Origin: Catajapyx aquilonaris
Lineage: Eukaryota
DNA length: 48,695 nucleotides
Assembly: GCA_000934665.2 (NCBI GenBank)
Contig: JYFJ02002928.1
Coordinates: 1-48,695, forward strand
Direction of reading: 5' to 3'
A model generated the notes under the pieces. It was not told the origin of the DNA, did not search any database, and saw only the letters and a program-made list of their open reading frames with translations. Each line of letters begins with the position of its first letter. Within the stretch, counting starts at the first letter, position 1. Below are positions 5,412-36,411 of the stretch, in pieces. The translations under genes were made by a program, and so were the position numbers.

Positions 5412-6210
5412 TCTCGAGTATATTTCACTTTACCGCTATGGGAATTAATTCTGTTCAGTGCATTTGCATAACTTCGGAAATGCACTTGAAGACTTGGAAC
5501 GTAGAAAGATCAGAATCACAATGGAATGAGTTAGCGGTAATAAAAGTTTGAAGGTTGAAGGATATGTGACGGGGTTTCTGTTTATACTCTAGGTCTCTAG
5601 GGGAATGCAATAATTTATTATATTGCGCTAGCTGAAAGTACAGGTACAGTACATGTCAAAGTCTATAAAAACAGAGTGCTTAACTCATCAGTTTCGATTA
5701 AATATGCCTTTGATCATTATGGCCTTATCTTGGTTGATCAGCTGCATTTACGAAGGTCGGATCAGAAGTCATGGCACGTATCCATTAATGCGAACATCTG
5801 ACCTTTTACAAAGATGAATTGCATATCGATTTGTAGCTTTGCCCATATTCCTATGATCTATTAAAAGATGATTCGAAAGGAGTCAGATAACAGAAAAATG
5901 AACGACATCTCTCTTCCCATCCCCTACAGGCTCTACAGCCAAGGAATAAAAATACAATTAGCTATTGACAACATTTTCGGAATCAATAGCAATGCGAACC
6001 ACGAAAATATCGACAAGAACTGGCTCTCAAACATTGATCTTACCTTCATAGAGGCACTCAACCTACTGATCAAGATTGTAACATGACCTTGCTCAATAGA
6101 TGGGAAGCCTTTGAATGCCACCCGCTTTGTGAGGATAGCTGATATCAGCCAGATATTGTACAGTATACTGATGCTTGTTGTAGTTCAGAGGTGCTGTTTG
6201 AAGTGATTTA

Positions 6211-6945
6211 CAGGGTGGGGCAAACGTCATCGGTGGATTAAAACGACGCAGCATGGCGTAAGTAACGAACGATTATATTTAAAAAATTACACTACACAGA
6301 GAAAGATATGACATTTATGGATCAAGGTCCAAAAAAGTCACTTCTTGAAAACAACACCGGATAGATGTCCACCTTTGCGGGCAACACATATTCCTCCAAA
6401 CGCCGCGGGACGAAACCCTTCATAACGCGCTCCAGCATGTCCAGAGGAATGTTTCTCACGGCGTGTCTTATCTGATCCTTAAGATCAGCCAATGACTGAG
6501 GACGTGTGGCGAACACCGAACAAATTAAAAGTCAAGTGTTTCCTGGGAGGGTCATTTCGAGATTTGGGGACATTCCTTGGCCGTCGTGGTCACCGGATTT
6601 GACCACCCTTCTTCTTGTGGGGGTAACTGAAGAGTTTGGTGTTCGCCACACGTCCTGAGTCATTGGCTGATCTTAAGGATCAGATAAGACACGCCGTGAG
6701 AAACATTCCTCTGGACATGCTGGAGCGCGTTATGAAGGGTTTCGTCCCACGGCGTTTGGAGGAATATGTGTTGCCCGCAAAGGTGGACATCTATCCGGTG
6801 TTGTTTTCAAGAAGTGACCTTTTTGGACCTTGATCCATAAATGGCATATCTTTCTCTGTGTAGTGTAATTTTTTTAAATATAATCGTTCGTTACTTACGC
6901 CATGCTGCGTCGTTTTAATCCGCCGATGACTTTTGCCCCACCCTG
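6211..6945 (+). mobile_element. Tc1/mariner (rosa/DD41D-like) foldback deletion derivative
   Basis: TA TSD both sides, CAGGGTG termini, ~311-bp arms (6211-6521, 6634-6945) with about 7 substitutions and 1 indel by eye; contains transposase C-terminus. Confidence 0.93.
6536..6817 (+). pseudogene. Tc1/mariner transposase C-terminal fragment (frameshifted)
   Basis: VFPGRVISRFGDIPWPSWSPDLT/FFLWG*LKSLVFATRPESLADLKDQIRHAVRNIPLDMLERVM.../CVARKGGHLSGVVFKK*, matching the WPPRSPDLTPxDFFLWG...GGH pattern of rosa-type transposases. Confidence 0.88.
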
Positions 6946-7254
6946 TATATGCACTGGCTTTCGATTTTACAAGAGAGGTAAATGAGTGAGATAGGGTATA
7001 TACTGCTGGTGTTAGGGCACCAATAATGAGGTGAGGTCAACGATCAAGAGCATCTTTAAGCCGTTTTCTCATGCTTCCTATTGTTTAGGGTGATGTCAGG
7101 CGGGTCCATGTTGTTCCATTTGTCTACTGATATCCTTTCCTACGTTCACATCATTTTTTATAATTACATATAATTCATACCCCGTTATCAGCCTGCTCTT
7201 TAGGGGGGAAGTTTTTGTTTTGCCTGGAACTCTTTGCTTTCATTTTACTGCGCT

Positions 7255-7445
7255 TTTTGGGATAGGATAGGGACGGAAGGAAGCGGCTGTGGCCTATTAA
7301 TTACGGAAATAACTCCGGAATTTTCCTGGAAGGACCGTGGGAAACCACAGAAAACCACGGTCAGAGTTGCCGGCCCCGGGATTTGATCCCAGGACCTCCC
7401 GATTAGCAGTCGGACATCGTATCCCCTACTCCAAACTGCTTCGGT
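7255..7445 (-). mobile_element. tRNA-derived SINE (family 3)
   Basis: Minus strand: A-box-like TGGAGTAGGGG, B-box-like GGGATCAAATCCC, then GGTTTTCTGTGGTTTCCC...TAGGCCACAGCCGCTTCCTTCC body typical of arthropod SINEs. Ends approximate. Confidence 0.75.
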
Positions 7446-9177
7446 TTTACTTGTATAATTACATATAGAATTTGGCGAGGAATTTGGACTGACTTGTGAG
7501 TTACGAAATGGCATACCGTTCATCACCACAAAGGATCAAGTGTTCAAATATTACAAACTATACAGTACGTCCCAGAACTTCTGGTCTATTAGGTCTCGTA
7601 AATATTACTTCTCTCCTACGCAATGAACAACAAATTGGTACTGTTGCACTGTAGTAAAATATAATAACTTAAATATTGAATCTGGCACTTGTGATGATAT
7701 ATGCTACTATTCTTTATTTGATACGTAAATATGATATTCACACTTCATCTCTGGGAGATTTGTCACTACTTGCCAAAATTGAATATACAATATAAGTTAC
7801 TTATTCATAGGTAAGTGTAATATCAAGTGTAATATGGTGCGAGGGAACCCACCATTCAGATTTCGGAATCTCCATCCACGCATGGCCTTTTTCAATGAAT
7901 AATGATAAGATACATTTTTGCTGCTGGTAATTCGGTTAGATTTGTTGATTCCATCACCCAACTCCCCAACTCCCACCTACAGACCAGCAATATTGAATTT
8001 GGGCGTTGATGACGTAGCCAGACTTTTGATTACTAATTTCATAGTTGTCACTGAAATGAGAGTCCACAATCTGCGAATCTGTCGTCACACAGTATAATAT
8101 GCAGAAACTGGAAATATGCCAGCTTCAGCTGAAGAATTCGGCTGGTGAAATATTTACTTGAAGAAATTCAAACCGCAAGCTTTGTCATCTTGCGAGAGCC
8201 CGACAAAAAGGTTCTGAAAACAAGACACAAGAAGGACTCCTCAGGTGACTACTGATTAAGCTTTTCAGAAAACTTATTCATTATCCCAAATATCAAGATT
8301 TAAGTAACGAACTTGCTGAAAAATATTGGTTACTCAGTGAAGCAACATCATGACCCCATTTCATAAGTCTACATACACCCTGTACAACTGCACATCCCGA
8401 CACCACGTAGATGGCGTTGGTTATCTCCAGAAGTCGATATCCATTGCTATAATTTGTGAGCTGGAGTGAAACTCCCTCTTGGCATGGTTTGGGTCCTAAT
8501 TTTCTTGGTCCAGGCGGCAGACGTAAATTACGAGCCGGAAACGCTTATCGCGGCCTCCCTAATAACGCTCTAACTGCCCGGAAAAGACCGATAGCGCTTC
8601 CTTGTGGAGTCCAAGGAACTGAACCAACCAGTGGGGGAGTACTCGCTGGCTGGGAAGAGGTGCATTTCGGACCACTAACAGATTGAGAAATCGCGCCATG
8701 TAACCTTATCCGAAGCCAATTCATTCTCCTGACTGGACACCTCAACCTTGTTCTATGTTTCTCGGGGTGTAAACGTAGACTCGGATTAGTTTAGACTGGA
8801 CCAAATTGCTTTAAGCACGTGGATCCCCTTGGAAGTTGCTGCGTGTATATGTAGAGCATGGTCATAAGTAACTGGTCAAAAACATAATTGGAAGATCTGT
8901 TGAAGTATTTCCATCTATAGGCATCTAGCCTTCCAGACTCATCATTTTAACACATTATTGTTGTTATAAGAAATCTATATCTCGATTAAACCATATTTAC
9001 GCAACAACCATGTGAAAATGCCAATATAAGTACGTATATACGCAGTATAGTAAATGTTTTTGGAGCACCTGTCATTTTACTGTAGATATCTCTAATGATA
9101 CAGTCTACAAAACAACAATATACAGGGTGGCCACAAATGATGGGGCCAAAGTGAAAAATTCTAGAAAATGCAACATA

Positions 9178-13188: not shown

Positions 13189-13221
13189 TTTCGCTGGATA
13201 TTAAATTTATTTTCTTAATAA

Positions 13222-13684
13222 ATCCATCCAGCATCCATCCGGGTAGTGCTTGGACCCCTTGGGGTATTGCACGGACCTTTATTTATTAACTTGTACTATC
13301 AGTCCAACAAGAATTATTGTCGCAGCGGCAGCGCACGAACTACAATCTACGAGCACAGGGACACGAGAGACTGTAGTTCGTGCGGTGCCGCTGCGACAAT
13401 TCTTGTTGGACACCAGGTACAACGTACACAATTGGAACCTTTGACGAAGCGCCCGGGCCCACGGGCAGGATGACAGGAGGGGATGTGCAAAGTGCAGTGC
13501 AATGTCGTGGGTGAGGTCATTTTGTGAACTCCCCCGGGTGGTTAGTCTAAGGGGTCCCACCCGAGACGAAGACAGAGATGGCCCAAACTCTGCACGAGAT
13601 GAAGGGGGTGTCCCCGGGCTGGGATCGAACCCGGGACCTTAACATCTGTTGGCGCATACGTTACCGCAGCACCACTCCAGGAGC
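13222..13684 (-). mobile_element. tRNA-derived SINE family 1, full length, with nested MITE
   Basis: A box TGGTGCTGCGG, B box GGTTCGATCCC; 16-bp TSD TTTATTYTCTTAATAA (13206-13221 / 13685-13700); GGAT-type tail; homologous to 19707-20064. Confidence 0.92.
13296..13417. mobile_element. Hairpin MITE inserted in SINE 3' region
   Basis: GTCCAACAAGAAT(TAT)TGTCGCAGCGGCA... mirrored at 13411; TA on both flanks; termini resemble those of 29340-29479. Confidence 0.82.
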
Positions 13685-14307
13685 TTTATTCTCTTAATAA
13701 GCTTCACACATGGCTCATTTTAGAGCACCTTTCGCCATTAATTAACTTCTTGTAATTTTAATGACGTCATTACACCTTGGTTATCACATATGACACCATA
13801 CAAATTTCATTACAACTTGTGACGCACATGGACTGTGTCCTAATGATAATCCTACAAAGTATCATAGAAGCCACCTACACAGAGCTCTTTCCATATTCTC
13901 ATTCGTTTTCTCGAGATTCTTCCGTTTCCCATGCACACTCCTCAAATCCCCAACATAACGGTTATGGCCTATTCCTCTATCCAATTCTTTCTGGTCTTCG
14001 GTTAGTTCATTCGGATAGTCCAAGACACCAACCAACCAACCAAAGGACAACAAGGCACAAGATTAGTGAAGCATACATGGATTGACTTATCTTGTCCATC
14101 TTGAGCAGTACTCTTTGGTTGGGATTCAGGACTGGTAATGACCCGCACGTGTGGATGGGTCATAGTCCTAAAGGCTGCGTGGTAGGTTCTGTATGGCGGG
14201 AAGCGCAACTTCCTCTAGCTCTGGGCGCGGCAAATGGAGCTCGGAAAAGGAGAGACCGCCAAGCGAAAGACCATCGTCGGCCGACAGGAAGGGCGTCAAT
14301 CGATAAC

Positions 14308-14309
<2 letters not shown>

Positions 14310-14362
<53 letters not shown>
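14310..14362. repeat. (AG)n microsatellite
   Basis: About 26 AG units. Confidence 0.98.
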
Positions 14363-14365
<3 letters not shown>

Positions 14366-15045
14366 CAGGGGCCGGAGACGAGCCTGAATCTCGGTTTCCA
14401 TGAAGCTGGCGCCATCCGCAAAATGGCTAATGGACTCTCCAGGGTATGTGCGAAACATCCCCCCGCCCTACCATCCTCCGTCCTTCACTACCTGGTAACC
14501 ATGTCCAGACTGCTTGCTTCTGGACCAAAGTGCAAGTCTAGTGTCGCGGGAATGGACCACGACATACAAGTAGATATACTGTATTTTTAAAGGGAAGTCA
14601 GGTGTCGCCAGATCCATGATCCATGATGAACATTACCAAAGAATTTTCAGTTTTCGGCATCTCTTTCTCTCACCCGGCGCACAATAAGAGCTTTCGGACC
14701 GGACTTGGCCGGGAGTTTTCGGGAACTTTCCTTTATGCGACTCGTTAAAAAATTTAGGACTTGCTAAAGTTCAGGATTTCCAGAACTTCAACTAACGATT
14801 GGAAAACGATAAAGCTTTTTGATCAGAAATGCTGCTACAATATGGGTATGAACATTGCTTAGGAATTTAAACTTTCTTATCCAGTATTTTTGCCAGTAAA
14901 TTATGCATTACGCCCTATAAGAGGCCTTTTCAAACAATCGTAGAATTAATAAGTTATGGCAACGTAAGATCTCGATTCTTATATTGGCGTTCAGCGAATT
15001 AGAATCACAGGCAAGTAAATATACTGATATTTACTTCCAGACTCA

Positions 15046-15172
15046 GGGCCGGTTTCACCGAGCTTGGTATATGATAAAACCAGGTTTCTTTAGGAAAATC
15101 CCATACAAATAGATAGGGATTTTGAGAAAGAACCCTGGTTTTATCATAAACTGAGCTCGGTGAAACCGGCCC
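15046..15172. mobile_element. PIF/Harbinger-like (Tourist-type) hairpin MITE
   Basis: TIR GGGCCGGTTTCACCGAGCT / AGCTCGGTGAAACCGGCCC, whole element near-palindromic, 3-bp TSD TCA on both sides. Confidence 0.88.
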
Positions 15173-18100
15173 TCAAGCTGCACATAATTATACCGGTAGT
15201 ACCTACAATAATGTCACAATCTTTCAGGTATAGCTACACAATCACCTCTGATATTCATGCACCTCAATCTCTCTATACTGTCTATAGCCATGACCTGTCC
15301 CTGAGTGACTTCGATTCGTTTCCCTCGAATCAAAAAAGCAGCTGTATATTCCTAGTTTTACAGAGACAACAATTATTTATCATTCATACAGAGGTTTAAA
15401 AGGCAACTTATATCCCCCATTCCCTCCACAGGCTGCAGGGAGAGGGGAAGGGCAGGGATGGAAAAGTTGGTGCCAAAGTAATATAGGACAAGCATCTAAA
15501 AATCGAATGTGACATTGTTGCTATGCAGAATAAGGATGGGGCAGCAATTAAATATGCATCTCATAATAATTATTCGCGGCAAATAATTTCCCATTGGGCA
15601 GAACAGGGGGTCGTTATTCATTGAACATCTCCCGCGCATGTCACATAGAGGTCAGATGGTTACGCTATTAAAAAGCACAGCAATATGCTTTCATTTTTAT
15701 TTTTATTTTATAAAAATCGCCAAAATATGCCATACAATGGTATACAGGGTGTTTCAAATGAAATATCCGTAAAGGTAGCCATTTTTGGCTGTCCAGCGCT
15801 CATTTCATGTTGTTACTTTTGCATATTTAATGATTCGATTATAAAAAGTGAGGGGCTGAGAATCAAAAACAATCTCACTACTGCTTAAATATAAGCATCT
15901 TAGTAGGCTACCAATAAATCGCTAAACACCAAGGACTTTTGAATCGAAACACCTTATAATTATATGCATGCTACATGGTCTCTGTAAAAACACAGAAATC
16001 TGCTGTAGATATTAATGTACGGATTTGATTATAAATGTATGATTTCAAAATGTAATTTACCCTCTATTTTAAGTGACTGTGCTTGACCTCCTGTTAATAA
16101 AAATGTAGAAGATTCTTATCTTCTCTCTTTCGTAGAATCAGTCTACAGCATTTTTCAGCAGCGAAAAAACCTCTTCGGCATCACACATCAGATTAAATTC
16201 GTAGATTACATGTGTGAAGCGACATGTGCAAGTGGTAATTTTTAATCGCATCTTAATAGTGAGCATGGAGCCACTGCAACACCTTTCACCTTCTTTTCCA
16301 ATGAAAATACAGTTCGAACCATACCGGGGGATAAAGAAAATTTGGGAGTAAAATTCTCGCTAACTAACAACAGCAGAACCGAATTTTTTCTGTGTAAGTG
16401 TAACTGACCTAGCTGCTAGCTCTCTTATACATGATCGTGTTACTTTCCCCATATTATTCATATAGTATTTTTAAAAGTCATTTGCCTGCGGGCGTGAAAT
16501 TTTAAGTCATGTCGTAACAAACATCCAAAAATGCGGAAAAAAGAGGTGCTCCTGACCAATGAAGCAGATTTTTATGTTTAGCTGTAGGTTTTCGGCAAAT
16601 AATAATTTTGTCAAAATTTGACTGATTTGTACTAGTGGTTGGGAGAAGCCTAACTTTCACGGTTTTTATTGTGCCTAGAGAGAATGGTCAACCGCAAACG
16701 CTACCCTTCTTTTGCGTAGGGGGGGTGGCATGGAGTGTCTCCTCTTTTGGCCAGAGTTGGAACTCGAAGAAGGTACCAAAATTTTCTTTATTTCCCCCTT
16801 AAGTATCGCAGAGATGGAAGTCACTAGGTGCAAGGCTGATGATCGCCCAGTCGAAATATTACGGGGAGGAAGCGAATGCATTTATCTCCTTCACGAAATC
16901 ATCCAGCTGATCATATGGCCGGTACAATGCCAAAGAATCATTGCCAAATTCTGCTGTAAGGTTGTGAAACACCTCTCCTCTAAAGTCCTGACCTAGCACC
17001 TCACAACTTCCACCTATTTGAGCATCCAAAGAAAACTCTGACTGGGAGATGTTGGAATAGATGGTGAAAGACGCTGGGGGTGGCTTCATGCACATGAACG
17101 GCCTCCCAAGAGATCCCCTTTGCCCTTCGCATTGAAATAGTGCCTTCCGTTGGGGTAAATGCATCGCGTGGCCCGTAGAATACCATGAAAAATATGTAGT
17201 ACGGTAATTACGACCATTTGCATTTGGAAATCTCATACAATATGGGGAACATTTAGATAATTTTCAAAAAATTAATTAACAATACATTAACATTCCATGA
17301 TGCGTACGAGTATTTACAGGCATATCAGAATTAGTCATGTGCAAATGGTTTTGCCCTTTTTTATTTCGAGGGGGAAAAAGTGGTTTTTTGGATTCAAAAT
17401 ATCTTCGAGTCAGGTAGATTGAAATACGTACTATCAAATCATGTCGTCTTAAAAGTGCGTGCATAAAATTAATTTTACAAATAACATAATATATTAGTGT
17501 TCCAGAGATCTGTAACTGGTTTCTTGATTTTACCATTGCTATTATTTTGAAAAATAATATCCGACTACACTTTGACTTCATATCAAAACGAATTAAAGCG
17601 CATGCTCACCAGTAGCAGTTTTTAAGTCAAATGTGCCATGAATTTCCAGACACACTTGTCCCGTAACATTTCAGACACTTGTGAAAAATTAATATTTCCA
17701 ATAATAATTCGTCCAAGAGCAGTGTTATGTCAAGCAGAGCCTTGGACAGCGTATATCGGGTTTTGCATGAAAAGAGGATAATTAATTTTACTGAAGCTAC
17801 TAATTGCATCTCTGAGCAGCAGCACCCTGATTACGTGAAACAAAAGCCACGTTAGGCAACAGTAATTAGGAAAGTGGCAAATGTGAGAGACGTGGTCCAT
17901 TTCATTGTTCATACAGTATGTAGTACAGCAAGAGAGACTTTGTCGTCACGTGGAACTTGTTGAAAGCATGAGGCTCACACTGCGTCAGGTGCTAAAGAGG
18001 AAATGTATTATTCAGGTTCTCCACCGAATCCCCACTTTTACGTCACGTATATATATACGGATTTTAGGGGTGAGGGGAATGTCTCGGGTGGGGAACAGGG

Positions 18101-18237
18101 ATGGACGAGGAGAATACTCTGCCAATGTTCAATCTACGGAGTACGCAGGAGTCGGTTTCGCCTCGGATTTTAGATTTTTAGTCTAGTCATCAAAGAAATG
18201 CCACATTAGTCTATTCAACTACTTAGTGTTAGTGTCA

Positions 18238-18594
18238 CAGGGGGGATGGTGGTCTAGTGGCTATGCTACTGCCCAGACAAGCGGGAGGTCCGGGGTTCAA
18301 ATCCCGTCCCCGTCACCTCCGCGTGGTCGGGTCTTTTTCTGCTTTTCACCCGACATGTCCGGGCAGACTCGCACTCCCTACTCTGCCCAGGGCCAGGAGA
18401 AAAGGTCTGGTGCTCTGAGGGTCTGTAGTGACTAGAAACTATTTAAGAGCGCCCTCTGTTGGGAACCTCCCCTTCCCCACACGCCCGTGGACCAGGGCGT
18501 TGCGACGAAAACATAAGTATGTATGTGAAAATTGCAAAATAAATAAAGGTTCGTGAATACCAAGAAGGTCAGCACTACCCAATATTATTATTAC
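18238..18594 (+). mobile_element. tRNA-derived SINE family 2 (different head, shares 3' module with family 1)
   Basis: A box TGGTCTAGTGG, B box GGTTCAAATCC; 3' part GCCCGTGGACCAGGGCG...AATAAAGGT...GCACTACCC plus (ATT)n tail; TSD TTAGTGTCA (18229-18237 / 18595-18603). Confidence 0.85.
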
Positions 18595-18874
18595 TTAGTG
18601 TCAAAGAACTTTCTAAACGTCTGGTAACAACAACCACCATCCCCACCAATATTATTGTCCTCATCATAGAGGACAGCGCACCGACCTGGAAAGGGCCTTT
18701 GCTGCGGGATCGTTTATTTCATTTTTCAAAAAGACATGAGACTCTTCGGCACAACCCAAATCCTGATCCAGTGACGAGGAAGCGACTGGTATGTGAGAAG
18801 AAGGTGCAAGTGGCATACCTCACATGAGCTCCCTTTGGTGATTAGTCAACCGAACATCCCACTTGATATTATAA

Positions 18875-19100
18875 TTGATTGGGTATTCGGCTAACCCCAG
18901 AGGGGTCTTCTGCCAGACCTTTATTATTGCGATGGTATACAATTTGGGGAATCCTATTTTTGAAGCGCCCGGGCCCACGGGCAGGATGACAGGAGGGGAT
19001 GTGCAAAGTGCAGTGCATCTGACGCGGTGGACATTTTTAGTGAACTCCCCCGGGTGGTTTAGTCTGTAGGAAATACCACCCGAGACGAAGCCAGAGGTGA
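18875..19100 (-). mobile_element. SINE family 1, 5'-truncated
   Basis: Body and tail homologous to 19707-20064; flanked by a 17-bp direct repeat CCCACTTGATATTATAA (18858-18874 / 19101-19117). Confidence 0.88.
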
Positions 19101-19706
19101 CCCACTTGATATTATAAAGCCAGAGAAACCTCAACTCTTCACGAATAGAAGGCATCGAACCTGACACAGCAGGGCTACGTCAAATGTCACTATCGTGCCT
19201 CTTCGCCAACTATACTACGATTATACGTATTACCAACTAGAGACAAAACACTTGATAATTTTGTTAAACAATGTTATCAGTAGGTGTTTGTGCTAACCAA
19301 AGCCTGCTTCAGTGGCAAGATAATATACGTCGTATTATGACTAATCAACTTCGGGACTGTAACTCTTGATTGTCATTGAAATTTTCGCAGTGTTTCAACG
19401 GCATGACCAAATTGAATAGAAGCTTTACGAACTTCCAACCCGTTACGGCCATATTTGGGAACATATTTTCACCCAGAACACCAGCGTCAACCCCACCCTG
19501 TGGCGGGATAATCTCTCCAAAAATCGCACGTACTCACTGACAGAGAAATCCAGGTAAAATAATGCAGAAGGAAAGCAAATGCACTTTCTTTTCTACCAGT
19601 AGGGAAAATCACAGAGTATTATTTTGCTTGTTATTAGTCACCTTTTTCTTTCTGCATTAAAGTGCAATGAGTCACATTTATAGACTATATCATTAAATGA
19701 CAGGCA

Positions 19707-20064
19707 GGGAAGCGGAGTGGCGCTGCGGTAACGTATGCGCCCACGGATGTTAAGGTCCCTGGTTCGATCCCAGCCCGAGGACACACCCTTCATATCTTTG
19801 CAGAGTTGGGTCGTCTCTGGCTTCGTCTCGGGTGGTATTTCCGCTAGACATATCCACCCGGGGGAGTTCACAAATTATGTACCATCTTGGAAACTTTGCA
19901 CTGCACATTGCACATCCCCTCCTGTCATCCTGCCCGTGGGCCCGGGCGATTCAAATGAATAGGCACCAAAATGTAACACCGATCAATAAAAAAATAAATA
20001 AATGTCAAAGTGCTTGTACCCAAGGGGTCAGAAGCACTACCCACAATTATTTTTATTATAATAT
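19707..20064 (+). mobile_element. tRNA-derived SINE family 1, full length (~358 bp)
   Basis: A box TGGCGCTGCGG, B box GGTTCGATCCC, AATAAA and AT-rich tail; perfect 15-bp TSD ATTAAATGACAGGCA (19692-19706 / 20065-20079). Confidence 0.95.
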
Positions 20065-20753
20065 ATTAAATGACAGGCAATATGCAGTATATAAACTTAC
20101 ATAGTGTTGCAAAAGAGAAGTGCACTTCTTTCAGAACAAAACTTTTTATTATCTGCCATGATTTTGGCAACTTTTACTCAATCGCACAGATAATAATCAC
20201 ATCTAAATTTAACAGCAACAACAGGTAGTTGACATTATCTCTGCTATGAAGCCAAAATTGCCAATATAAACTAGACCAATCATTTTGGAAAATTGCAAAT
20301 AACCTTATATAGGAGAGGAAGTGTGCACCTTTTAGAACATCTACAGCCACAGCAAATTGTCACAAAATTCCTGACAGGCTATATTGAAAACTTTGATAGC
20401 TTGAAAAACATTTAAAATATCTGAGTATGCAAGAGGGACTTTCCAAAAACCATCCGTTATAAGTTGTTTACATTTTCTTAGTCAAGTCATGACGAGTTGC
20501 CTAATTTCATTGTGCCTCCGTATGGAAACCATAAGTTTACATTGCAGGGAACCAAGTCAGTGGCTAGAACTTACGGAAACTTTTGAAAGTATTATCTTAG
20601 CTTACTGCGCTCCTTTATCTGGTGAACTTTACACTTCAAAGCCTTCTTGTGAAAAGCTGCTTGAATTTTGGCACACTTTAGCATTAATTTCAGAGGCATT
20701 ATGGATTATTATTTTGTTGCATGAATGATTGTGCAATTTTAAAATTCAGTGTA

Positions 20754-21701
20754 AGGTCCGTGATGATAATATGGCCAGCATAGAAGGTAATATGGCCAAT
20801 GGACTGTATCTCGGTTAGTTACAGAGGAATCCGGGAGATAGTGCCTGCATGGTGTCCAGGCAGGTCGGTAGAGGGGTGATGCCGAATATCATTACTTGGC
20901 GCCGCGCAGTTCGGCGCCGGCCCGCCATATTGCCGAGAGAATCGTGTCGAGCAAAGTGAGTTCTTAATATATTTCTGCATGTAAGTTGGCCACTGTTTTC
21001 AGGTCCCATTGGGGTGCAGTTGCAATTGTGTGATTGTTTCATATGCACATTTAAAAATTTTTTAATGCTTATTCCAGTACACTCATTGTGATTTGAGTTA
21101 CTCCAACTATGACGCCTTAATTTAGGATTTTCTGTAAAATCGTCTGGGTTGAAATTATGGCCATGGTGGCCATATTAGAAAGAAACAAAAGAAACCTATG
21201 AAGAAGAAGCCTACGCAGAAGAAGAATGTAAGGACACAAGGGGGAAAAAAAGTTGCAGTGATTTTTGAGTCTTCCATTCTCAGCTTTTCCTTACTTCCTT
21301 CGATTCTTATTGCAGTGGCATTTATTTGATAAGTACTTATGCAATTACATTTTTTTCCTTAGTTGCTATTACCTAACTTAATCTTCATGTAGGGAGTTAC
21401 AACAAAAAAACCACAGAATTTTATTTTGCTAAATATTTATGAACATTTTTTTAGGCGAGCGAAAGTTTGTTGGCCTTAATTATTAACATCACATGTTTTT
21501 AATATGGCCAAATAATAGACTTTTGGGTGAAAATATTTTTCCCTCTGTTCTCTTTCAGCTATAAGTTACGTCAGATTTTTTTCCTCCACTAGCAGGGTTC
21601 CAATGTACAGGATACCGTACTTGGTTTTTTAAAATTTACCAATACAGCTTCTGGAAAATTCGCGAAAGCTTAGCTATAGGCCATATTACCATCAGGTATC
21701 T
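20754..21701. mobile_element. Old TA-flanked TIR DNA transposon relic (pogo/Tc1-mariner-like)
   Basis: TA|AGGTCCGTGATGATAATATGGCC ... GGCCATATTACCATCAGGTATCT|TA; AATATGGCC motif recurs internally in both orientations. Confidence 0.5.
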
Positions 21702-21980
21702 TATTTAAAAATGACTACCGATGTTTAAATAATGAGATAATTAATATTAACCTAGTTTTATATTGGAAGACCTGAAATGTCTATTATTCTCTATATTCTG
21801 TAGGCTCTTATCTCTTTATCTCTTAGTATTATAATTCACCTACTACCGTATCCTGTTTGTTTGTTTCCCTCCCCGACCTGCCTGACCTGCCTGATGTTCG
21901 TGCCCTGCCATCTAGCGAGAGGTTTCCATAGTAGTAACTATTCACCTAATCCCGCATCAACTGGGACAACTCCTCTGATA

Positions 21981-22230
21981 CAGTAGGGGACACCGCCACC
22001 ACGGATTTGGCGCTGGCGGCTCTCCAGTGTCATCTAGGTCAAAGTCGGATTCGGACGGTTGGCGGACTTTGTCTGCGAATGCGCACCGGACTGCTCCGGA
22101 CCCAGCTGCAGAGGAAAGGACGGTTTGGGTTGGTTGATAAGGCGTCCCCCTGAATCTGACTTTGACCTAGATGACTATGGAGCGCCGACAGTGCCAAATC
22201 CGAGGTGGCGGGGACTCTCAAAGTCCCCTG
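21981..22230. mobile_element. Hairpin MITE
   Basis: ~60-bp arms CCGCCACCACGGATTTGGC...GTCATCTAGGTCAAAGTCGGATTC mirrored at 22152-22211; outer AGGGGAC/GTCCCCT; left end TA|CAGT, right end degenerate. Confidence 0.8.
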
Positions 22231-22672
22231 TCGTCATCATAAGGCTATGGCAACTGACGGATTATTTCGGTTTATTTATGGACCGAATTACGTGACTGCC
22301 ATATACGGGGCATTGTCACTATTCTTCTCAGAGCAGCGGTGTCGAATTATGCGGAAAATACACTTAAATCGAAATTATCCGTCAGTTGACGCACTTTCGG
22401 TTATCACACCCTTGAGTTTAATTAAGTGGTGTTCACCACACCCACCCTTCGTCCTAAGGGATGGAATTTCGTGTGCTGAGGACTAATACCTTTCTCTGGG
22501 TCCATCGCACATTTTCTCAAGTGGCGCTTGCTTCTAACATCATTTGCCATTTAAAAAAAGATAAGATGAACAGTGACTTTCAGTCCAGTACCCTTTCTCT
22601 TCATGTTAGCCTCGGGTTGGCTATATCTATCACCCAACGAAGGTGCACACACAAGCCTTGTACCATATCATA

Positions 22673-22775
22673 CAGGGTAACTCTCTCTGTAAAGACTTGC
22701 AGGGGTAATAGAGGGGACCAAGACAAGAATTTTTCACATAGGAACCCTGTCCGGAAACGCCATCTAGAGGGGGTT
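22673..22775 (+). mobile_element. Orphan Tc1/mariner-like left end
   Basis: TA|CAGGGT start followed by TAGAGGGGACC...TAGGAACCCTGTCCGGAAACGC; a similar stretch occurs at ~29488-29585. Confidence 0.5.
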
Positions 22776-22873
22776 CATACACAATGAACGGGTGCGCTCA
22801 GAGCCTCAGACGCGTCACGCGGGAGGCGTTAGGCGAGCGGACTGTTTGTTGATAGATGGCGCGCGGATAGCAA

Positions 22874-23001
22874 ACAACGACGCGGATACGCCATAACATG
22901 GCAACAGATCCATTGTTCACTATCCTCGCGTCTCCTAGGAGGAGGACTTTAGTTGCTAGATGACTCTGTTGTTGCCACGTTATGGCACATCGCGTCGTTG
23001 T
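22874..23001. repeat. Inverted repeat (probable MITE remnant)
   Basis: ACAACGACGCGGATACGCCATAACATGGCAACA / TGTTGCCACGTTATGGCACATCGCGTCGTTGT. Confidence 0.7.
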
Positions 23002-23061
23002 ATATTGAATTCACACCCAAAATGTAGAATTTCTATTTTAATAATGCTTCACAAAAATATT

Positions 23062-23159
23062 GTGTCGAATTTTCGTCCCACTGCTAACTTAGCAGTACCA
23101 GTGCCAACACTAGTACTGTTAAGTTAGAAGTAACTAGCAGTGGGGCGATAATTCCACCC
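23062..23159. mobile_element. MITE family X, copy 2
   Basis: GAATTTTCGTCCCACTGCTA...TAGCAGTGGGGCGATAATTCCACCC; homologous to 41186-41293 with a small deletion. Confidence 0.85.
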
Positions 23160-23459
23160 ACTCTTTGTAATAAAATAATATTTCATGCATAGGGCTATAT
23201 CGTGCACAAAATGCTGTATACGGAAGGCCCACTTGGTACATGATGATGCCTGGAGCTTGACGATATAATGCTTAATATTGACAGGCTGACCAACACAATG
23301 AACACGTCACAAAATGGGGTGGTATAATACTGGAAAATAATATTCATGTCGCGTACTGCGTTTCTCCTTAAAAATACTGTACATGTACCTTACTGTTCTT
23401 ACATGAAGTAGTCCTACAGTTTAGGGAAAAAAGGGCCTATTTTTGCCCACCCGAAAGCG

Positions 23460-23513
23460 TTCGGTTAACCGATGGTTCGGTTGATCAGTGTTCGGATAAT
23501 CGATGCTCCACTG
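23460..23513. mobile_element. pogo/Tigger-like MITE right end
   Basis: Ends TGTTCGGATAATCGATGCTCCACTG|TA with TTCGGTTAACCGA subterminal motif. Confidence 0.6.
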
Positions 23514-24019
23514 TACATGTATTCAACCGATTTCATCGGGAAGGCAGGAAGATCAGTATATATGCTTAGCGCCAGCAATTACGGGCTAGAATCTCTTCAA
23601 TGTGGCAGGATCAATCTTGATATTTTTTCACAATTCACCTAATATTTCCAAACAGAAGCCAAGCATCTTAGTTGTGTTGTTAGCAATATAATGTTTCGGA
23701 AAATAATTTTTAGCATATCTAGCTGACGGCAACAGCATACATGTTGCCTCATACTTGAGCTACATAACTTACAATGTTACAATTTGGAGAGATTTAGTAA
23801 CCAAAAAGCTATTGCCCAGCAAATAAAAAATGCAAATGAACTTCAATGAGTATGTGTCAAATTTATAGAGAGTGCTCCCAGGTATTTATCTACTGTTCAG
23901 CAATATTAAAGCTTAATTAAGACGTGCCTGTGACAGAAAATATACAGTTTTGTGGTTAATATCACTGTTTCTTAGTTTCATATGGATCCTATGACACCGG
24001 AACGATTTTTTCCGTAAAT

Positions 24020-24093
24020 GATCGGTTATCCGAACAATCAGTTATCCGAACACCCCATGGGCAGACTCTGTTCGGATAATCGATGCTCCACTG
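24020..24093. mobile_element. pogo/Tigger-like MITE right end, second copy
   Basis: Identical 27-mer TGTTCGGATAATCGATGCTCCACTGTA; repeated GTTATCCGAACA upstream. Confidence 0.6.
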
Positions 24094-25284
24094 TAGAGCC
24101 TTAAAACCCTGCCAGGATCTAATGCAAATTGTAGGCAGCCATGGCATCGAACGCATATGCAACTTCTCACCTCAACAGCTGAGGTGCACACGTTGACTTC
24201 CACTTTCTCTCTTCGGAGAGAGTTGCGTCATGTCGGAGGACGGGAGCTTTAGGAAAAAATGATCAGGAACCCTTCTGCTAGTACACAACACTGGATAGGT
24301 GTAACCCGGGGTCCTCTGGATCAATATGAAGCGCATGCAGGCAGAAGCCTTAATGAGGATGCCAGACACGCGCTGAAAAACATGATAACGTCCTGTTATC
24401 TCGGATTCCTCCTAAGTGATTCACCCAATGTTTATTTTCTCAGCCCGGGAATGGACCTGACCTAATGAGCCCTGGCATTCTTCATCACACCGGATTCCGA
24501 CTGGACCAGGAATGGGGTGGGTAGGGGGAGTCGGGAAGGGAGTCTTGTCGGGTAACGATAATAATCGTCAGGCAAACTAATCAGGAGTAATGTTAACGCC
24601 ATTGCGGTTGGATTCTCTCGCTGCCCAATCGTCGTTCAGCACTAATAGCTTTTGGTGGATTAGCAGTTGTATAGGCATGAAAACGAACACCATGGCGTCA
24701 GGCTTGAAATTATCAGGCAGTACTCATGCACAGCCAAACTTTTCACTTAAGGTATATTTACACGACAATGCGACAATACTAGAAAAATAATAACTTCACA
24801 CCAATGAATGAGATCAGCTTTCCAGAGGTAATGGCACTTCTAATGCCCCTTATTTTTCTATTTGGAAAATGATATAGGCTACTGATATTTGCCTTCTGCC
24901 CAAAATCACAGATGCTTAATAACCAACCTGCCGCAGCTTCTGTTGCCCTAAATCCCGCAGCAAAGCAACGTATAGTAACGTCGCATCACGTATATAAACA
25001 TCACTCCCAATAACAGGGACGTAAAAAGCTGACGTTACCACAGAGGTGGTTCCATTTAGCCGAAGATGATCCGAATCGCCCATGGGCAGTATCGTGATGG
25101 CGCTGACATAGACGTAGAAAATGTTCCAAAATCCGCGTAACCACGAAGACACGACAAGAACGTCAGATGAGAAGGACGCATCTCAAAGCTTATTGATGGA
25201 TCACGAGACCCCGGCATTCCCGGTTGTCGCAGATTCCATCCCAGCATATTATACACGTACCGGTATGACTGACAGTATAGCATA

Positions 25285-25426
25285 CTATGGGGCTCAAATC
25301 GTTTTGGCCACTTTATCCTGGTCCTGAAGCAACCCTTCGCACAGGCCCTACGGTGAGCAGGTGTATGTGTGTGAAGGGTTGCTTCAAGACCAGGATAAAG
25401 TGACCAAAACAATTTGAGCCCCATAG
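25285..25426. mobile_element. TA-flanked hairpin MITE (family Y), intact
   Basis: CTATGGGGCTCAAAT...ATTTGAGCCCCATAG, ~57-bp arms, TA TSD; second copy at 37654-38155. Confidence 0.92.
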
Positions 25427-28145
25427 TACATCGGCCACGATCCTGAATCGTGGTTTAGGAAAGTGCGAGTTGAGATGCAAAAACTTTGCCAAGCACTCAT
25501 ATGCATACTGTTAACCTTTCACAGTATCCCTGCCATACCTGCAAAATTTTCTGACATGCAGGTCCAGGATGCTCTTTTTTGTGCCACCTCACGCGGTAGG
25601 ACTTTTTCGAGTAGTGCGGAAGTCTCTCAATCCGAATATGCACCTTGCACTTTTCTCTAATATTGTGAAGCAAAACTGCTATTACATAGGAGATCTTGAT
25701 TACAAATAAGTGAGCCTAATGCAGTATATTCTAATATTCACCTTGACCATACCTATCGCCGGGTGTGGAGTTGAGAAGAATGCCATTTATAATGGTAGGT
25801 TTAGACAAAAAAACAACGATTTAGCAAAACATTTCATGTACTAGCTGTATATTCACGTTTAAATTTTGGTTATGTAACAGAACAAGGGCCCAACATCGTC
25901 AAACTGCAATGTTGCGTGGCATTCAGCATGTGTATACAGCATATCGTATCGGTGTAAAAATGACAGGCCATGATGGGAAGGACCTTCTGGTAATATACAG
26001 TGCATTCCAAGTATCCGGGTCCTTTTAATTATGCCCTATAGTCACAAATTTCACCCTAGGTTGTCATTTCTGTGTATCTTTTTGCGACCCAATATAGGTG
26101 CAGAACTATTACCATTATAACACCAGCTACTATATTTGACCACACCTGGGAATAATAATATATCTATGCATCTGGATATTGGCTCAAGAAGCTACACAAA
26201 AATGCCAACTTCGGGAGAAATTTGCGATAAATTAACCGATCCCAGCAGTACCTATTTGGAACACTCTCTCTAAAAACTATTGCTCGTGTGCTTTAAATAA
26301 ATCTAAAATAGTAATTTTTAATTGACACCCCATCAATATATTTCCGGCTCCAGTTGTGTCCTTGTTCTATTGGGGCGTTCAATTAACTTATGCTAATGTT
26401 ATAGAAGACAGAATATTAAGCAATAATAAAGATAAGAGTACATTTTACTCGAGCAGTTTCATCTCAAATTGAGTAGTTTGCATTGTTCACTTTCTGACCC
26501 TAATACATCCCAAATTATCCAGGCAAATCTCTTATATGTATATAATTATGCGTGTTATAGTCCGTATTCTACTATGATAACGTGGTTTTTTCCTTATGCT
26601 TTGTTGGTAGTGCCTCGGGGGACTCCGCATCATAAGTTAATGTACAGGAGGTTGCACAATTCCGGCTTCCCATTACTCCAAAGCTTTGTACAGCAACAAC
26701 CTAATTGCACAGGCATTGTTCATTATAGATGCAGTATTTGCATAGCCTGTGGGTAAAACCATAGACATATCACAGGGTCAGCATTGCCGATGTGTTATAC
26801 ACATACTAGTCTGCATAATATATTGGTGCGTACAGAAATTAAATCCTCTTTGGGCACTAAAAGGCTTAACTTACATTATTTTAAACTAAGACTGTATTGC
26901 AGCCTGCTGTCACAAACCCTTGGCGACTACTGCACACAAACATAACTTATACCGAGGCATTTTTCGAATCATGACATTGGATTTTGTAAACCTAATATAT
27001 CATGCACTCTCGTCTCCAAGCAAATTCCTTCGAGTTACGTACAGCATGTTGCTGTCCATTCAGGCAGGGCTGCACCAGCACTAAAGGCTGACTAATGGTA
27101 TATTATAGAGATTGTCGAATGAGGTGTTTATTATTGTTCTTCACCATTTTCAGAAACAAATGTTATTTCTATCAACGACAAATAACTAGGGGATAAAAAA
27201 TATTCTTCCCTACCCGCGGGGGATGGTCTGTGGCCTAAACCAACACTGCCATTCTCTCTAACAACGGAGGACAAAAGTTCATTATTTCTACCAAATTAAC
27301 AAATACCTCAACACATATTCGCAGTTACTTTTTTGAGGGAGTGCGGAGAATCCGGATGCCACGTTAATCAATTTTCATTTCTATGTTAGTTTTGATATAC
27401 GCCAGACAATTTCTTTTACATTCCGAGGATGCAAGCAACAAAGGGATAACATGAAACATTTATACCTAGCTTCCTATGGAGTGTTGGCTTACACGGCCAT
27501 ATAAAGAAAATTAATTATGGAGTCAAACTTTTGCTAGTCGCAATTGTATAGCCTATATATGCTTTCTCTTTGAAGTGAAGTTTGATATATTTTTTGATAT
27601 AAGGGGACACAAAAAGCAATCATTGAGAGGCCGTGATGGTCATGTCCACTCGGCCGAATCCCCGGAATATAATAAATAAAAAGGAGCCAGAATTGAAGGG
27701 TTTTGCGAGGTTGAACCGGTTGGAAAGTTAGTTGAATGGGTATTATGAGTGGGTCTCCTCAGGGCACAAAGGACTTTCTGGAGAGGACTCCCGGCTCCAT
27801 TGATTCCAGTCACCAAAAGCGCTCCTGAGATTGTCCACTGGACTATAGCCCTCCAGTATAGTGGTCGTCATCCAACAACATTTGCGACCAGAAGAACACT
27901 CGGGGACCATGATCAGCCAACGTCGGCTTTAATCCATAAATCCCCAAGCGATTTCCGTTCTTCCCTTTGTTCTCATCTGATTCATATCAACGGACAATAT
28001 TTGCGAATATCAGCACCCTAAATGCTCGGAAACACGAGACTGCTTACCACGTACATTTTGCGCCATCTTAGCTACAATAATTTTATTCCGTAATGAGACA
28101 TCCAGGGGGAAATATTTCATAGTCAATTCAGCAAATCAAAGAAAG

Positions 28146-28179: not shown

Positions 28180-29339
28180 ACGGCAACATGAGCCAAGAAC
28201 TCAGGTCTTTGATTTTTAGTGATCAATAATTATTGTCGTATAGATTTCGTTCCTCCCACCTTTTTGACCTTCACATGGCCCACGAATGCACGAATGTGTC
28301 GATTGAGGCCATTTTCAAAGATCGGTAGGTGACCACAGAGTCTAAAGGGGAAATTCCTGGGAACTACTTTTGAATGAAAATGCACCGGTTACATGCCTAA
28401 AATTTGCGTAATTTTGGTAAAACATTTAAATACAATTTACACTTAATCCTAGTTAAAATTAAAGATAATTTTCTACGGTGCCCTGAATAGGATTTAGAAA
28501 AGTATTTGCACTTTATTAATTGTAATTACGACAATCAACATTGTATGGATTCCGAGAAAGACAGCAATTACGTTGTAGTAGGCGGAGTAAATCCGGCAAT
28601 TTCAATCCACAATTTGTATTACTTCGTCTAGGCCTTGGTCATGGCCGGTATAGGTGTCATATTTCACGCCTTTTATCCTATATGCACTTTGATGAAAATG
28701 TGATACAAATGGGTACGTGGAAAAGGAAGAATTGAAGAGCGACCCAGTCATACAGTATGCATGCATACCTTGTTTTCAATGCGAAATATTCCTTGGGAGC
28801 GCTGTTGTTTCACATTATTAAATTGAAAATGGTGGCACGTGTATGATAGGTAATCGGTAAAAAACCACTATGCTCGACACAAGATTTTTCGCACAGATGG
28901 TCCTTGATAGTTTGTACTACGCAGTAGACTATATTCCTATTCAACCAATTAGGAAAGCTGCGTGAATTTTTCTTGGTGTCTATTACCATACACAAAAAGT
29001 AATGTCTTTCGAGCTTTTCTTAAGAGGAACGTAAATGTTTTTCCCCCGTTATAAAGAGGGAGTTTACAGGTGCAAACAGACACATATTATGAAGGAGAAT
29101 AGCCTTTTTAGATTATTATCATTTTTATCAGAAAAATTGAACTGGTTTAAGGCATATATGGGTAGGTTTAGTCTGCATAAAAATTTCATGCGTAAGTTTG
29201 AAACCACGTCAGAAAATAAAAAATTTACATCGAAGCACAGAGAAGCCCACCTACCAAACGGGGAGATATATACCCTTAGGCCTATGCAGAACATGGCCAC
29301 AGTTATCTTGTAGCCTTCAGAATCAAAATTTTACAGGTA

Positions 29340-29479
29340 TCAACAGTTCAAAAAGAATTGTCCCTCGCGTCGAGCGGGCAGCCACGCGTCAGGATGAAAG
29401 CAACCAGTTAACTGGTTCCTTTCATCCTGACGCGTGGCTGCCCGCTCGACGCGAGGGACAATTCTTTTTGGACTGTTGA
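29340..29479. mobile_element. Loop-less palindromic MITE
   Basis: Palindrome centred on GTT|AAC (29409/29410), two mismatches, TA on both flanks. Confidence 0.9.
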
Positions 29480-29835
29480 TACATAGGCGGGTGTTACCGG
29501 TAACTCTGGCAAAAATCACAATGTCAGTAGAGGCGGCCCCATAGGCAAGTATTTTGAGCTTAGGTACCCATGTCCGGAAATGCTTTGGTCTGTTGCGCCT
29601 GGTGGGTAGGCAACCCACCGTACTCGAAACTTGCGTTCATCAGGTGTGTCGCGTGTGGAGGAGACGAAGGTGAAAACAATTGAAGGGTTTGGTGGAAAAA
29701 CAGGATATTTTTGTTATTTTCGAGAAAACAAAGAAAAACTGAATCCCCGGAAAACGTTTAAAATGTTTCTAATGATCATTTTTTGTTGAATAGGATGATA
29801 CCAAAGTCAACATGCACCAGGATGTGAAGTTTGTA

Positions 29836-34070: not shown

Positions 34071-35144
34071 TTTACAGAAGCCTTTGCGGTAATGATTGTG
34101 TTTAGTAAATACACCTCTAAACAATAATTACTGCTGTATCCGGATCTCAAATTATGAATATCATTAGAGGCATTATTATTGCAAATTGACCCTTGACAAT
34201 TGAGAGCTCTTAGTGCATTGTTGGCTGGTGTTTTGAATGCGCGTAGCCTATAAAATGGATCCCTCGACGAGGCTAGCAGCACGCAATGCATTTTCCTCCA
34301 TCCTGAATCCGGGCGTTAGTACTTTTTGTGTGTCCATAGCCCTTCTTTTTTGCTGGGGTTTCTGGCTGAGTGTCAAGAAGTGTGGTATCCTTGTAGTGGA
34401 GCGTTAGTACAGTGTGGTCCGGATCGAGTCCGGGTGCGAGCAGAGTATCGATCATGGCCAGCATCCATCGCCTGGTTGATATGTCCGCAAAAGCAGAAGA
34501 AAGGCGCCGTTACTCGCCCCGGGCTCCATATTTCGTCCTGCAGAGGGCATATTTACCTTCCACTCCAACCGGAGACTAAAAGACTTGGCCTTGCAGCATG
34601 AGCAAGTAGCTAGGAAAAGAAGAAGCAGCGAGGCCGTCGTCGTCATACTATATGTACAGTAGGGATGGCTTCAATATGCTGATTGTTGCCGATGTTTTTT
34701 CGGGCTGACACTGTGTTGACTCAGGGCTTGACTTAGCCGAGGTTATATCGGGTTGTGTGCACAGGTTTAATCAAATGCGCTATTGGATTTTGCCGTACCT
34801 GCTGGGGAAAAGGCTTTTACATGTTTCGGACTTATAGAGGGCCCGGGGCCAGGCATATTCACTTCCATTTAGAAATAACACGTACTCCGTATTCAATCAA
34901 TAAGCTACGCATGTCCAACTTGGCTACTGGGCCCAGTACAGCTCCTTCCTCATTTTATATGCAAGCCCAGATTCCACATGAAAGCTCATCTTCTTGTGGC
35001 TTCTAATGATCTGCTGCTAATGGTTCAAATTTACAACCCTCCTCCTCCAACCCACCAGAGTCATTTGGCAGACTCTGATGGAGGTACTCGAGCATTGTGC
35101 AAATTATATTTTGCAACATCTATCCATAAAATACCATCAATGTA

Positions 35145-35765
35145 TAGTAGGAATCATAACATGATGAACTTAAAAAAAATGGTAGAGCTGTAAATTGCAA
35201 CAGTGCAAGGGTTTGGGCTGGCCACAGTAGGAGGGGGTCAGATAAGTGTGACCCTTCCTAATCTACTGTCCTCGGGCTTATCACAAGTAGGGAAGTGAAC
35301 CTTTTAAAATAATCGGATAGCTTTTTTAATGACGCACCTTTTTGCATTTTTGACGGCAAATATGAATTCTAAGGTGTCGAAAACCTATCTTTTCATACTC
35401 GATTCGTACCAGGCATGTCACAAACAGGCCCACGGAAACCCATATGTATATTAAGAAAACTTGTTGAAGTTATCATGCTAGATCTACTTTTGACATGACT
35501 GGTATGAATCAGGTATGAAAATATATGTTTTCGACACCTTAGGATTCAGATTTGCTGTCAAAAATGCAAAAAGGTGCGTCTTTAAAAAGGTTAACGGATT
35601 AGTTTAGAAGGCCCACTACCCCACCTGATATCAGCCCAGGGAGGGTAGATTAGGAAGGGTCTCACTTATCTGACCCCTCCTACCATGACCAGCTCAAACG
35701 CTTGCACTGTTGTAATTTACAACTCTACAATTTTTTTGAAGTTCATAATGTTCTGATTCCTACTA
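35145..35765. mobile_element. Long-TIR foldback DNA element (superfamily uncertain)
   Basis: ~275-bp diverged inverted arms (to ~35420 and from ~35491), termini TAGTAGGAATCA / TGATTCCTACTA, TA on both flanks. Confidence 0.85.
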
Positions 35766-36367: not shown

Positions 36368-36411
36368 CTAGTGGAAAGGGAAGATCTGGCTGTTCAATAT
36401 CAAGCAGTATA

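Follow-up and report, generated by a model that had tools for sequence, protein, structure and literature searches.

Near-invariant blocks alternate with highly variable spacers in an abundant tRNA-like SINE family of Catajapyx aquilonaris

Several SINE families have been described in which subfamily differences are clustered in unconstrained parts of the element, and multiple source genes are the standard explanation in print (PMC2873951, PMC4758252). In the HAmo SINE of cyprinid fish, the tRNA-unrelated region contains 23 of the 30 positions that are diagnostic of subfamilies, an observation from which multiple source genes were inferred (PMC2873951). A second group comprises SINEs with central domains that are conserved across phyla and joined to variable heads, bodies and tails; one of these, the Nin-DC domain, is interrupted by a variable region of 15-20 bp (PMC4758252). 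Exchange of modules has been ascribed to template switching or recombination (PMC4758252), it has been suggested that the conserved domains act as hot spots of recombination (PMC5804259), and one domain has been found with several LINE-type tails and one tail with several superfamilies (PMC11481361). Such modular behavior has been described as the "mosaic" evolution of SINEs with conserved domains (PMC11481361, PMC4758252).

The element considered here lies in a stretch of 48,695 nucleotides, referred to below as the window, which is eukaryotic DNA of ~42% G+C with microsatellites and many small repeats. A first-pass annotation had placed five copies of a SINE family at 13222-, 18875-, 19707+, 36412+ and 43871-. 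All five were found at these places, on both strands of the 48.7 kb, and their bounds were re-read from the sequences and from the target-site duplications (TSDs) as follows.

13222-13684, minus strand: copy A, full-length, aligned with the other copies
13685-13700 and 13206-13221: TSD of copy A, 16 nt with 1 mismatch (15/16 identical)
18873-19100, minus strand: copy B, 5'-truncated, begins in block 2 and is without the first ~100 nt
19101-19115 and 18858-18872: TSD of copy B, 15/15 identical
19707-20064, plus strand: copy C, the reported element, a full-length SINE of 358 nt that aligns with the four other copies
19692-19706 (5', plus strand) and its twin at 20065-20079: TSD of copy C, ATTAAATGACAGGCA, 15/15 identical, read directly
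36412-~36717, plus strand: copy D, tail stops short after GAAGCAC, 3' end uncertain
43871-44271, minus strand: copy E, (ATT)n tail and 9-nt TSD; unlike the other copies in its head and in the 3' half of its block 3
13304-13409, minus strand: near-perfect palindromic insertion of 106 nt within V2 of copy A, a long hairpin in the predicted fold

When the TSDs of copies A, B and C were pooled, a single mismatch was observed in 46 nt, and these intact duplications show the three copies to be young. To judge from its sequence, copy E may be either an older copy or a member of a different subfamily. No TSD of at least 10 nt with up to 1 mismatch was found near the ends of copy D. The sole repeat there is the 9-nt CTGGCTGTT at 36386-36394 and ~36717-36725, the upstream occurrence of which lies 17 nt before the start of the SINE; it may be a chance match or the trace of an unusual 5' junction. 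Shortly after the end of copy D (36955-37351, plus strand), three direct copies of a 57-nt stretch are spaced ~170 nt apart, with 74% identity to the first. When up to 3 mismatches were allowed, the window yielded no further copy of the palindrome arm of copy A, and the insertion may be a foldback element or a small MITE.

The anatomy of the family was read from copy C, where frozen blocks of 11-52 nt alternate with spacers.

19707-19783, plus strand: tRNA-like head, with the highest summed contig depth of all parts
19718-19728, plus strand: A-box-like TGGCGCTGCGG in the head
19761-19771, plus strand: B box GGTTCGATCCC, exact; the A-box-like motif starts 43 nt upstream
after the head and before stem 1, plus strand: linker, with 20% pairwise differences among copies A-D
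19829-19860, plus strand: stem 1, CGGGTGG / CCACCCG, in 5/5 copies and predicted in the consensus fold
19836-19853, plus strand: stem 1 loop, variable, 15-18 nt, with 39% pairwise differences
19861-19871, plus strand: invariant block GGGGAGTTCAC, with 5 exact matches in the window
19875-19896, plus strand: V1, 22 nt in copy C and 19 alignment columns in the other copies
19897-19948, plus strand: block 3, with TGCAC repeats, ATCCCCTCCTGTCATCCTG and stem 3 (GCCCG/CGGGC); it also contains TTGCACATCCCCTCCTGT
19949-19997, plus strand: V2, an AT-rich variable spacer within the 3' module, poorly alignable
19998-20042, plus strand: 3' tail, an AATAAA-like motif and a nested hairpin ending in CACTACCC
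20043-20064, plus strand: terminal tail, an AT-rich simple repeat

In the other copies the terminal repeats are (ATGG)n-like, AATC-like or (ATT)n. We take TGGCGCTGCGG and GGTTCGATCCC to be an A-box-like motif and a B box, respectively, on the basis of the box consensus, to which the former fits at 9/11 positions and the latter exactly. The element is short, non-coding, dispersed and multi-copy, and it displays variable TSDs and 5' truncation, the SINE hallmarks for which it was tested. Its identity as a SINE family is supported by the TSDs of 15-16 nt, the 5'-truncated copy, the B box and A-box-like motif, the hairpin tail ending in short simple repeats, and a block depth of ~10^4 single-copy equivalents.

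No tRNA was called in the head by ARAGORN, and Rfam gave 0 matches at the gathering score over the whole window, with no tRNA match even at E values up to 10. At that relaxed threshold, the element itself had two weak Rfam matches, which were at chance level and were rejected. No Pfam family match above the cut-off, and no reverse transcriptase, was found in the 47 ORFs scanned of the 141 of at least 70 aa; two below-cut-off matches were in microsatellite ORFs. With copy C as the blastn query, the window yielded SINE copies only and no LINE. The SINE patterns gave 0 loci in the collections of genome contigs and viral contigs. Metagenome contigs with the 18-mer of block 3 comprised 4 loci that had nothing in common with the SINE beyond that 18-mer.

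In its general plan, the element resembles the V, Nin-DC/Deu, CORE, Meta, MESC and Snail superfamilies, in which strongly conserved body blocks are combined with varying heads, spacers and tails and in which tails are common to several families (PMC4758252, PMC5804259, PMC11481361). The likeness to Nin-DC extends to a variable region of 15-20 bp inside the domain, although the published variation is across species and that seen here is among copies of one genome. A conserved stem-loop is likewise reported for the Vhc subdomain in this literature. Words of 9-16 nt from the blocks, stem and head had no match in the supplement files searched from PMC4758252, PMC11481361, PMC4824008 and PMC5804259. 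A full-text literature search with a 16-mer of block 3 returned no paper. The GGAGTT...TGCA...CCCC pattern resembles the V-domain of fish SINEs, a similarity that we treat as a lead only.

The distribution of differences along the element was established from an alignment that spans the head through block 3, in which pairwise differences were counted among copies A-D. The conserved blocks differed at 49/807 compared positions (6.1%), the linker after the head at 16/82 (20%), the stem 1 loop at 42/107 (39%) and V1 at 84/123 (68%). Block 3 alone showed 0-4 differences in 52 nt among these copies. In direct searches, TTGCACATCCCCTCCTGT gave five matches in the window at up to 3 mismatches, all of them exact, with 0.03 expected by chance, GGGGAGTTCAC gave five exact matches versus 0.01 expected, and the pattern GGTGG-N14-20-CCACCCGGGG gave five versus 0 expected. 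The first-pass annotation had described near-identical blocks around a variable segment and a CGGGTGG...CCACCCG stem that is kept while its loop varies; both descriptions are borne out, the former by the five exact occurrences of TTGCACATCCCCTCCTGT and of GGGGAGTTCAC and by the clustering of differences, the latter in 5/5 copies with a loop that differs by 39% between pairs. The five V1 strings that it quoted are all present in the sequence. When alignment columns were shuffled, 0/20000 shuffles gave a 20-column window as diverse as V1.

To extend these observations beyond the window, contigs of four DNA runs from one sample were aligned to positions 19650-20120, that is, to copy C only, at 80% likeness. 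When a 9-kb stretch that includes the element was divided into words, a fraction of 0.79-0.82 was present in these runs, and the single-copy flanking depth was 21-39. The summed depths, in single-copy equivalents and all rough, were as follows.

head: 18000-26000
block 2: 5800-8400
block 3: 13700-18100
V1 bin: 138-269
V2: 10-176
tail hairpin: 67-134

Summed contig depth is not copy number, contigs with a V1 unlike that of copy C may fail the 80% likeness, and low-cover parts of the contig alignment carry no meaning by themselves. The ~100-fold difference in summed depth between the blocks and V1, V2 and the tail, observed in all four runs, is therefore read only as indicating that exact block words are present in something like ten thousand copies and that the V1, V2 and tail of copy C itself account for ~1% of that. 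Rows with V1 variants had a mean depth of 30-65 per contig, equal to one to two and a half single-copy equivalents, whereas the flanking blocks reached thousands of depth per contig. The exception was found in run X4, where one or two V1-variant contigs had a depth of ~2070-2090, or ~70 single-copy equivalents; some V1 variants are thus multi-copy.

The loose ends of the contigs carry further information. In 30 contigs leaving copy C at 19874, the loose-end consensus begins ATGACC like copies A and E, with an agreement of 0.6, and in 18 contigs leaving at 19952 a V2-like consensus was obtained with an agreement of 0.57. Unrelated 5' flanks in the same contig alignment gave 0.37-0.41. By this comparison, V1 and V2 are homologous genome-wide but far more variable than the blocks. 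Upstream of other genomic copies (loose ends at 19706/19707), the consensus was very AT-rich with an agreement of ~0.4, and AT-rich runs stand at the start of the TSDs in the window. The partner endonuclease may thus prefer targets that are AT-rich.

Two lines of evidence place the origin of the V1 differences before insertion. The young copies A, B and C differ at 49/63 V1 positions versus 17/370 block positions (Fisher p 3e-37), and their TSDs are intact. Given that the TSDs of these copies have barely changed and that their V1 segments are nonetheless divergent, the V1 differences predate insertion and are not the product of later decay. The earlier argument that neutral decay after insertion would be spread evenly, and hence cannot account for V1, is upheld by the single TSD mismatch in 46 nt set against these proportions. 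Ordinary decay might still be invoked if CpG-type mutation hot spots or alignment artefacts had concentrated the differences by chance: CpG occurs in V1 of four of the five copies, and indels make the V1 alignment of copies B and C uncertain. However, the CpG-rich blocks are unchanged among copies A-D, the TSDs are as intact as stated, the observed clustering was reached in 0/20000 column shuffles, and the ~100-fold depth contrast recurs in all four runs. We regard this explanation as extremely improbable.

V1 itself falls into three classes among the five copies. It had been reported to differ strongly in every copy. This holds for copies B and C, which differ from the others at 14-20 of 19-22 positions, but not for copies A, D and E, which have one V1 type and differ from each other by 4/19, 6/19 and 7/19. 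Within the A/D/E pairs the excess of V1 differences over block differences is not significant (p 0.08, 0.24 and 0.08). By eye, the V1 segments of copies B and C keep parts of the copy A pattern, namely ACC near the start and CA or AC.T near the end. The 4-7/19 differences among copies A, D and E, together with a loose-end consensus that begins ATGACC like A and E, show that V1 is inherited by descent and not filled in at random. V1 length is nearly fixed across the copies, direct reading of the A/D/E changes revealed that all bases are involved with no single-base bias, and no second copy of any V1 was found in the window on either strand at up to 2 mismatches.

These features bear on a localised diversification at each retrotransposition, in which a step that is error-prone or lacks a template, and that affects V1 (and V2) only, would make each insertion nearly unique. 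Such a step would account for the low depth of most V1-variant contigs (about one to two and a half single-copy equivalents) compared with thousands per contig in the flanking blocks, and for the near-random distance of the V1 segments of copies B and C (14-20 differences in 19-22 positions). It would not account for copies A, D and E having one V1 type even though E differs most in the blocks and has a 9-nt TSD, nor for the nearly fixed length of V1, the A/D/E differences without single-base bias, or the presence of at least one V1 variant at ~70 copy equivalents. Low-depth contigs are, moreover, also produced by post-insertion mutation and repeat assembly, and neither a reverse transcriptase gene in the ORFs scanned nor a template copy in the window was found. 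This mechanism is therefore considered very unlikely, and the "localised diversifying process" offered in the first-pass annotation gained no positive support: three of the five V1 segments are of one type, there is no base-specific pattern, and there is no donor in the window.

A known system comparable in this respect is that of the diversity-generating retroelements, in which reverse transcriptase drives targeted hypermutation of a variable repeat and which are marked by a template copy, adenine-specific changes and an adjacent reverse transcriptase. The SINE resembles them in that it is reverse-transcribed and contains a short segment of hypervariable sequence bordered on both sides by invariant sequence. 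Unlike them, it has no template/variable repeat pair in the window, no adenine-specific pattern and no reverse transcriptase family in the scanned ORFs; its host is a eukaryote, and in three of its five copies V1 is clearly an inherited variant of a single type. A system of this kind was rejected as a candidate, V1 having no second copy in the window, changes at all bases and no reverse transcriptase family in the scanned ORFs.

The second spacer, V2, had been called barely alignable. Alignment is indeed poor, but the V2 segments are not unrelated, as a weak AGG..CCAA..TGT.TAC pattern can be seen by eye in copies A, B, C and E. Further information on this region is provided by neighboring SINEs of the window.

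18240-18597, plus strand: S2, a second tRNA-like SINE family, with another head and body and the same 3' module as copy C
~18640-19225, minus strand: S3, an old diverged relative, with approximate bounds, aligned after removal of copy B
44225-44245, minus strand: B-box region in the head of copy E, ATCAAATCCCGTCCC instead of TTCGATCCCAGCCC, resembling the S2 head TTCAAATCCCGTCCC

With blastn, positions 226-349 of copy C matched 18483-18593 of the window, within S2, at 65% identity (E 1.3e-4). The 3' module common to S2 and copy C extends from stem 3 through V2 to the tail, and in S2 it consists of the stem GCCCG..AGGGC, an AT-rich spacer, AATAAAGGT, a hairpin, CACTACCC and ATT repeats. V2 accordingly lies inside a module common to two families, which is presumably derived from the partner LINE. 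A 3' module shared in this way matches the "mosaic" mode of SINE evolution described in PMC11481361 and PMC4758252. In its head variant CAAATCCCGTCCC, copy E resembles S2; the variant may mark a subfamily or may have come from an exchange between families. Copy B is nested in the stem-1 region of S3, a SINE-in-SINE arrangement.

Several other repeats were observed in the window. Four SINEs (S2, S3, copy B and copy C) are clustered in 1.9 kb. Inverted repeats unrelated to the SINE are present at 6206-6950, 35141-35769 and 29337-29482: one has arms of 244 nt with 98% complementarity that are separated by 112 nt and enclosed by a longer 81-nt outer pair, another has arms of 190 nt at 84%, and another is a 146-nt palindrome without a spacer. 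These large inverted repeats are probably foldback or MITE-like elements. A short repeat family at 25278-25428, 37688-37734 and 38078-38162 has members of 47-85 nt with 92-98% identity in direct and inverted orientation.

A comparison of V1 with the blocks reveals that likeness in one does not follow likeness in the other. Copies B and C are closest to copy A in the blocks (4-5%) but farthest from it in V1, and copy E, whose blocks diverge most (17-20%), nevertheless has a V1 that resembles those of A and D. This lack of correspondence suggests that in the B and C lineages V1 was replaced episodically, in jumps, and did not drift steadily. One mechanism would be segmental replacement, in which the blocks serve as homology patches for template switching by the LINE reverse transcriptase or for recombination between copies, so that V1, V2 and the loop would be traded as cassettes and a new V1 type would appear in a jump. 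The incongruence of V1 and block likeness would be expected from such exchange, as would the apparent grouping (by eye) of copy A, whose V1 goes with that of D and E and whose V2 goes with that of B and C, the occurrence of one 3' module in two SINE families and the S2-like head variant of copy E; template switching and recombination at conserved domains have also been discussed for module exchange (PMC4758252, PMC5804259). The groupings come, however, from five copies only, among which an A/D/E-type V1 and an A/B/C-type V2 may both be old and ancestral. No donor for the V1 of B or C was found in the window, and a reshuffling of cassettes explains how variants are combined but not how they originate. 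Segmental replacement is accordingly held to be possible, though rather unlikely as the principal cause.

A related and still less probable proposal, which we consider doubtful, is that V1 (and V2) are renewed in jumps during retrotransposition itself, through template switching at the blocks or error-prone passage over the hairpin apex, such that young copies would be near-uniquely tagged on a frozen scaffold. It is kept alive by the same incongruence between V1 and the blocks and by the depth of most V1 contigs, at one to a few copy equivalents.

Secondary structure predictions were examined for the body and for the tail. The predicted body contains three invariant stems, and in the consensus fold the loop and V1 are apical in two hairpins with invariant stems, CGGGTGG/CCACCCG and GGGGAGU/ACAUCCCC. 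None of the 27 predicted pairs in the body (0/27) showed a compensatory change; given that the stems are invariant, the alignment speaks neither for nor against the fold. Compared with shuffled sequence, the predicted folding of the body shows no advantage (z -1.0 to +0.3), and duplex energies for pairing of V1 with the loop or V2 were no better for cognate than for non-cognate combinations. In the tail, a nested hairpin of the same type is predicted in copies A, B, C and E and in S2 and S3, copy C being without the outer tier. Its z values were -1.6 to -2.8 in five of the six sequences and -0.6 in S3. The middle stem would be UGGC/GCCG in copy B, CGCA/UGCG in S3 and GUGC/GCAC in the rest, a pair register that rests on single-sequence folds, the MAFFT alignment of the six tails being out of structural register. 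The proposal that RNA structure is under selection therefore fares differently in the two regions: it is better supported for the tail hairpin, by the z values and the altered letters of its stem, than for the body, where, with 0/27 covarying pairs and shuffle-like folds, it is weakly supported.

The explanation that we favor, and consider probable, is that the family is a tRNA-like, LINE-dependent SINE with many long-active source lineages that have been selected for retrotransposition competence, while their spacers have been free to change. In this scheme RNA polymerase III would transcribe a source copy from the internal A and B boxes of the head, and the reverse transcriptase of a partner LINE would recognize the 3' hairpin and simple-repeat tail. 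The RNA would be copied into an AT-rich target by target-primed reverse transcription, the outcome of insertion being TSDs of 15-16 nt and sometimes 5'-truncated copies. The uneven divergence would then arise before insertion, in many source lineages with a long period of activity. A lineage would stay productive only with its head, body blocks and tail hairpin intact, and the stem 1 loop, V1 and V2, under little or no constraint, would drift or be replaced. Insertions derived from different source lineages would thus be near-identical in the blocks and unlike in the spacers even when young. We infer the polymerase III transcription, the LINE dependence, the selection on source copies and the number of lineages. 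What is observed is a graded divergence, from 6% in the blocks through 20% in the linker and 39% in the loop to 68% in V1, as relaxed selection predicts. Letter-by-letter readings refer to the five copies, and genome-wide figures are summed contig depths. The idea of many source genes under purifying selection, already put forward in the first-pass annotation, fits everything seen, including the graded constraint and the inherited V1; the RNA-structure component attached to it is weakly supported in the body.

The same reading brings the family close to the HAmo SINE, in which differences are concentrated between head and tail, several source genes are active, and head and tail are kept by function (PMC2873951). 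Some differences can be set against this likeness: the tRNA-unrelated body described here has near-invariant blocks separated by spacers of ~20 and ~50 nt, great heterogeneity is seen in the tail region of the contig sample as well, and the number of V1 types seems large. In summary, this is a clear, statistically solid case of block-wise constraint in a SINE and, on present evidence, not a new mechanism.

For the annotation of this genome, consensus-based masking will split the family at V1 and V2 and under-call its 3' parts. For the conserved body domains of SINEs, the functions put forward are RNA folding, protein binding and a role as hot spots of recombination (PMC4758252, PMC5804259). 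A family as abundant and as recently active as this one could act as a natural mutational scan of SINE RNA, in which the blocks identify the parts that are indispensable to a source copy and the spacers those that can be lost. If it were true that a special process renews the spacers, this would be a new aspect of LINE-mediated reverse transcription.
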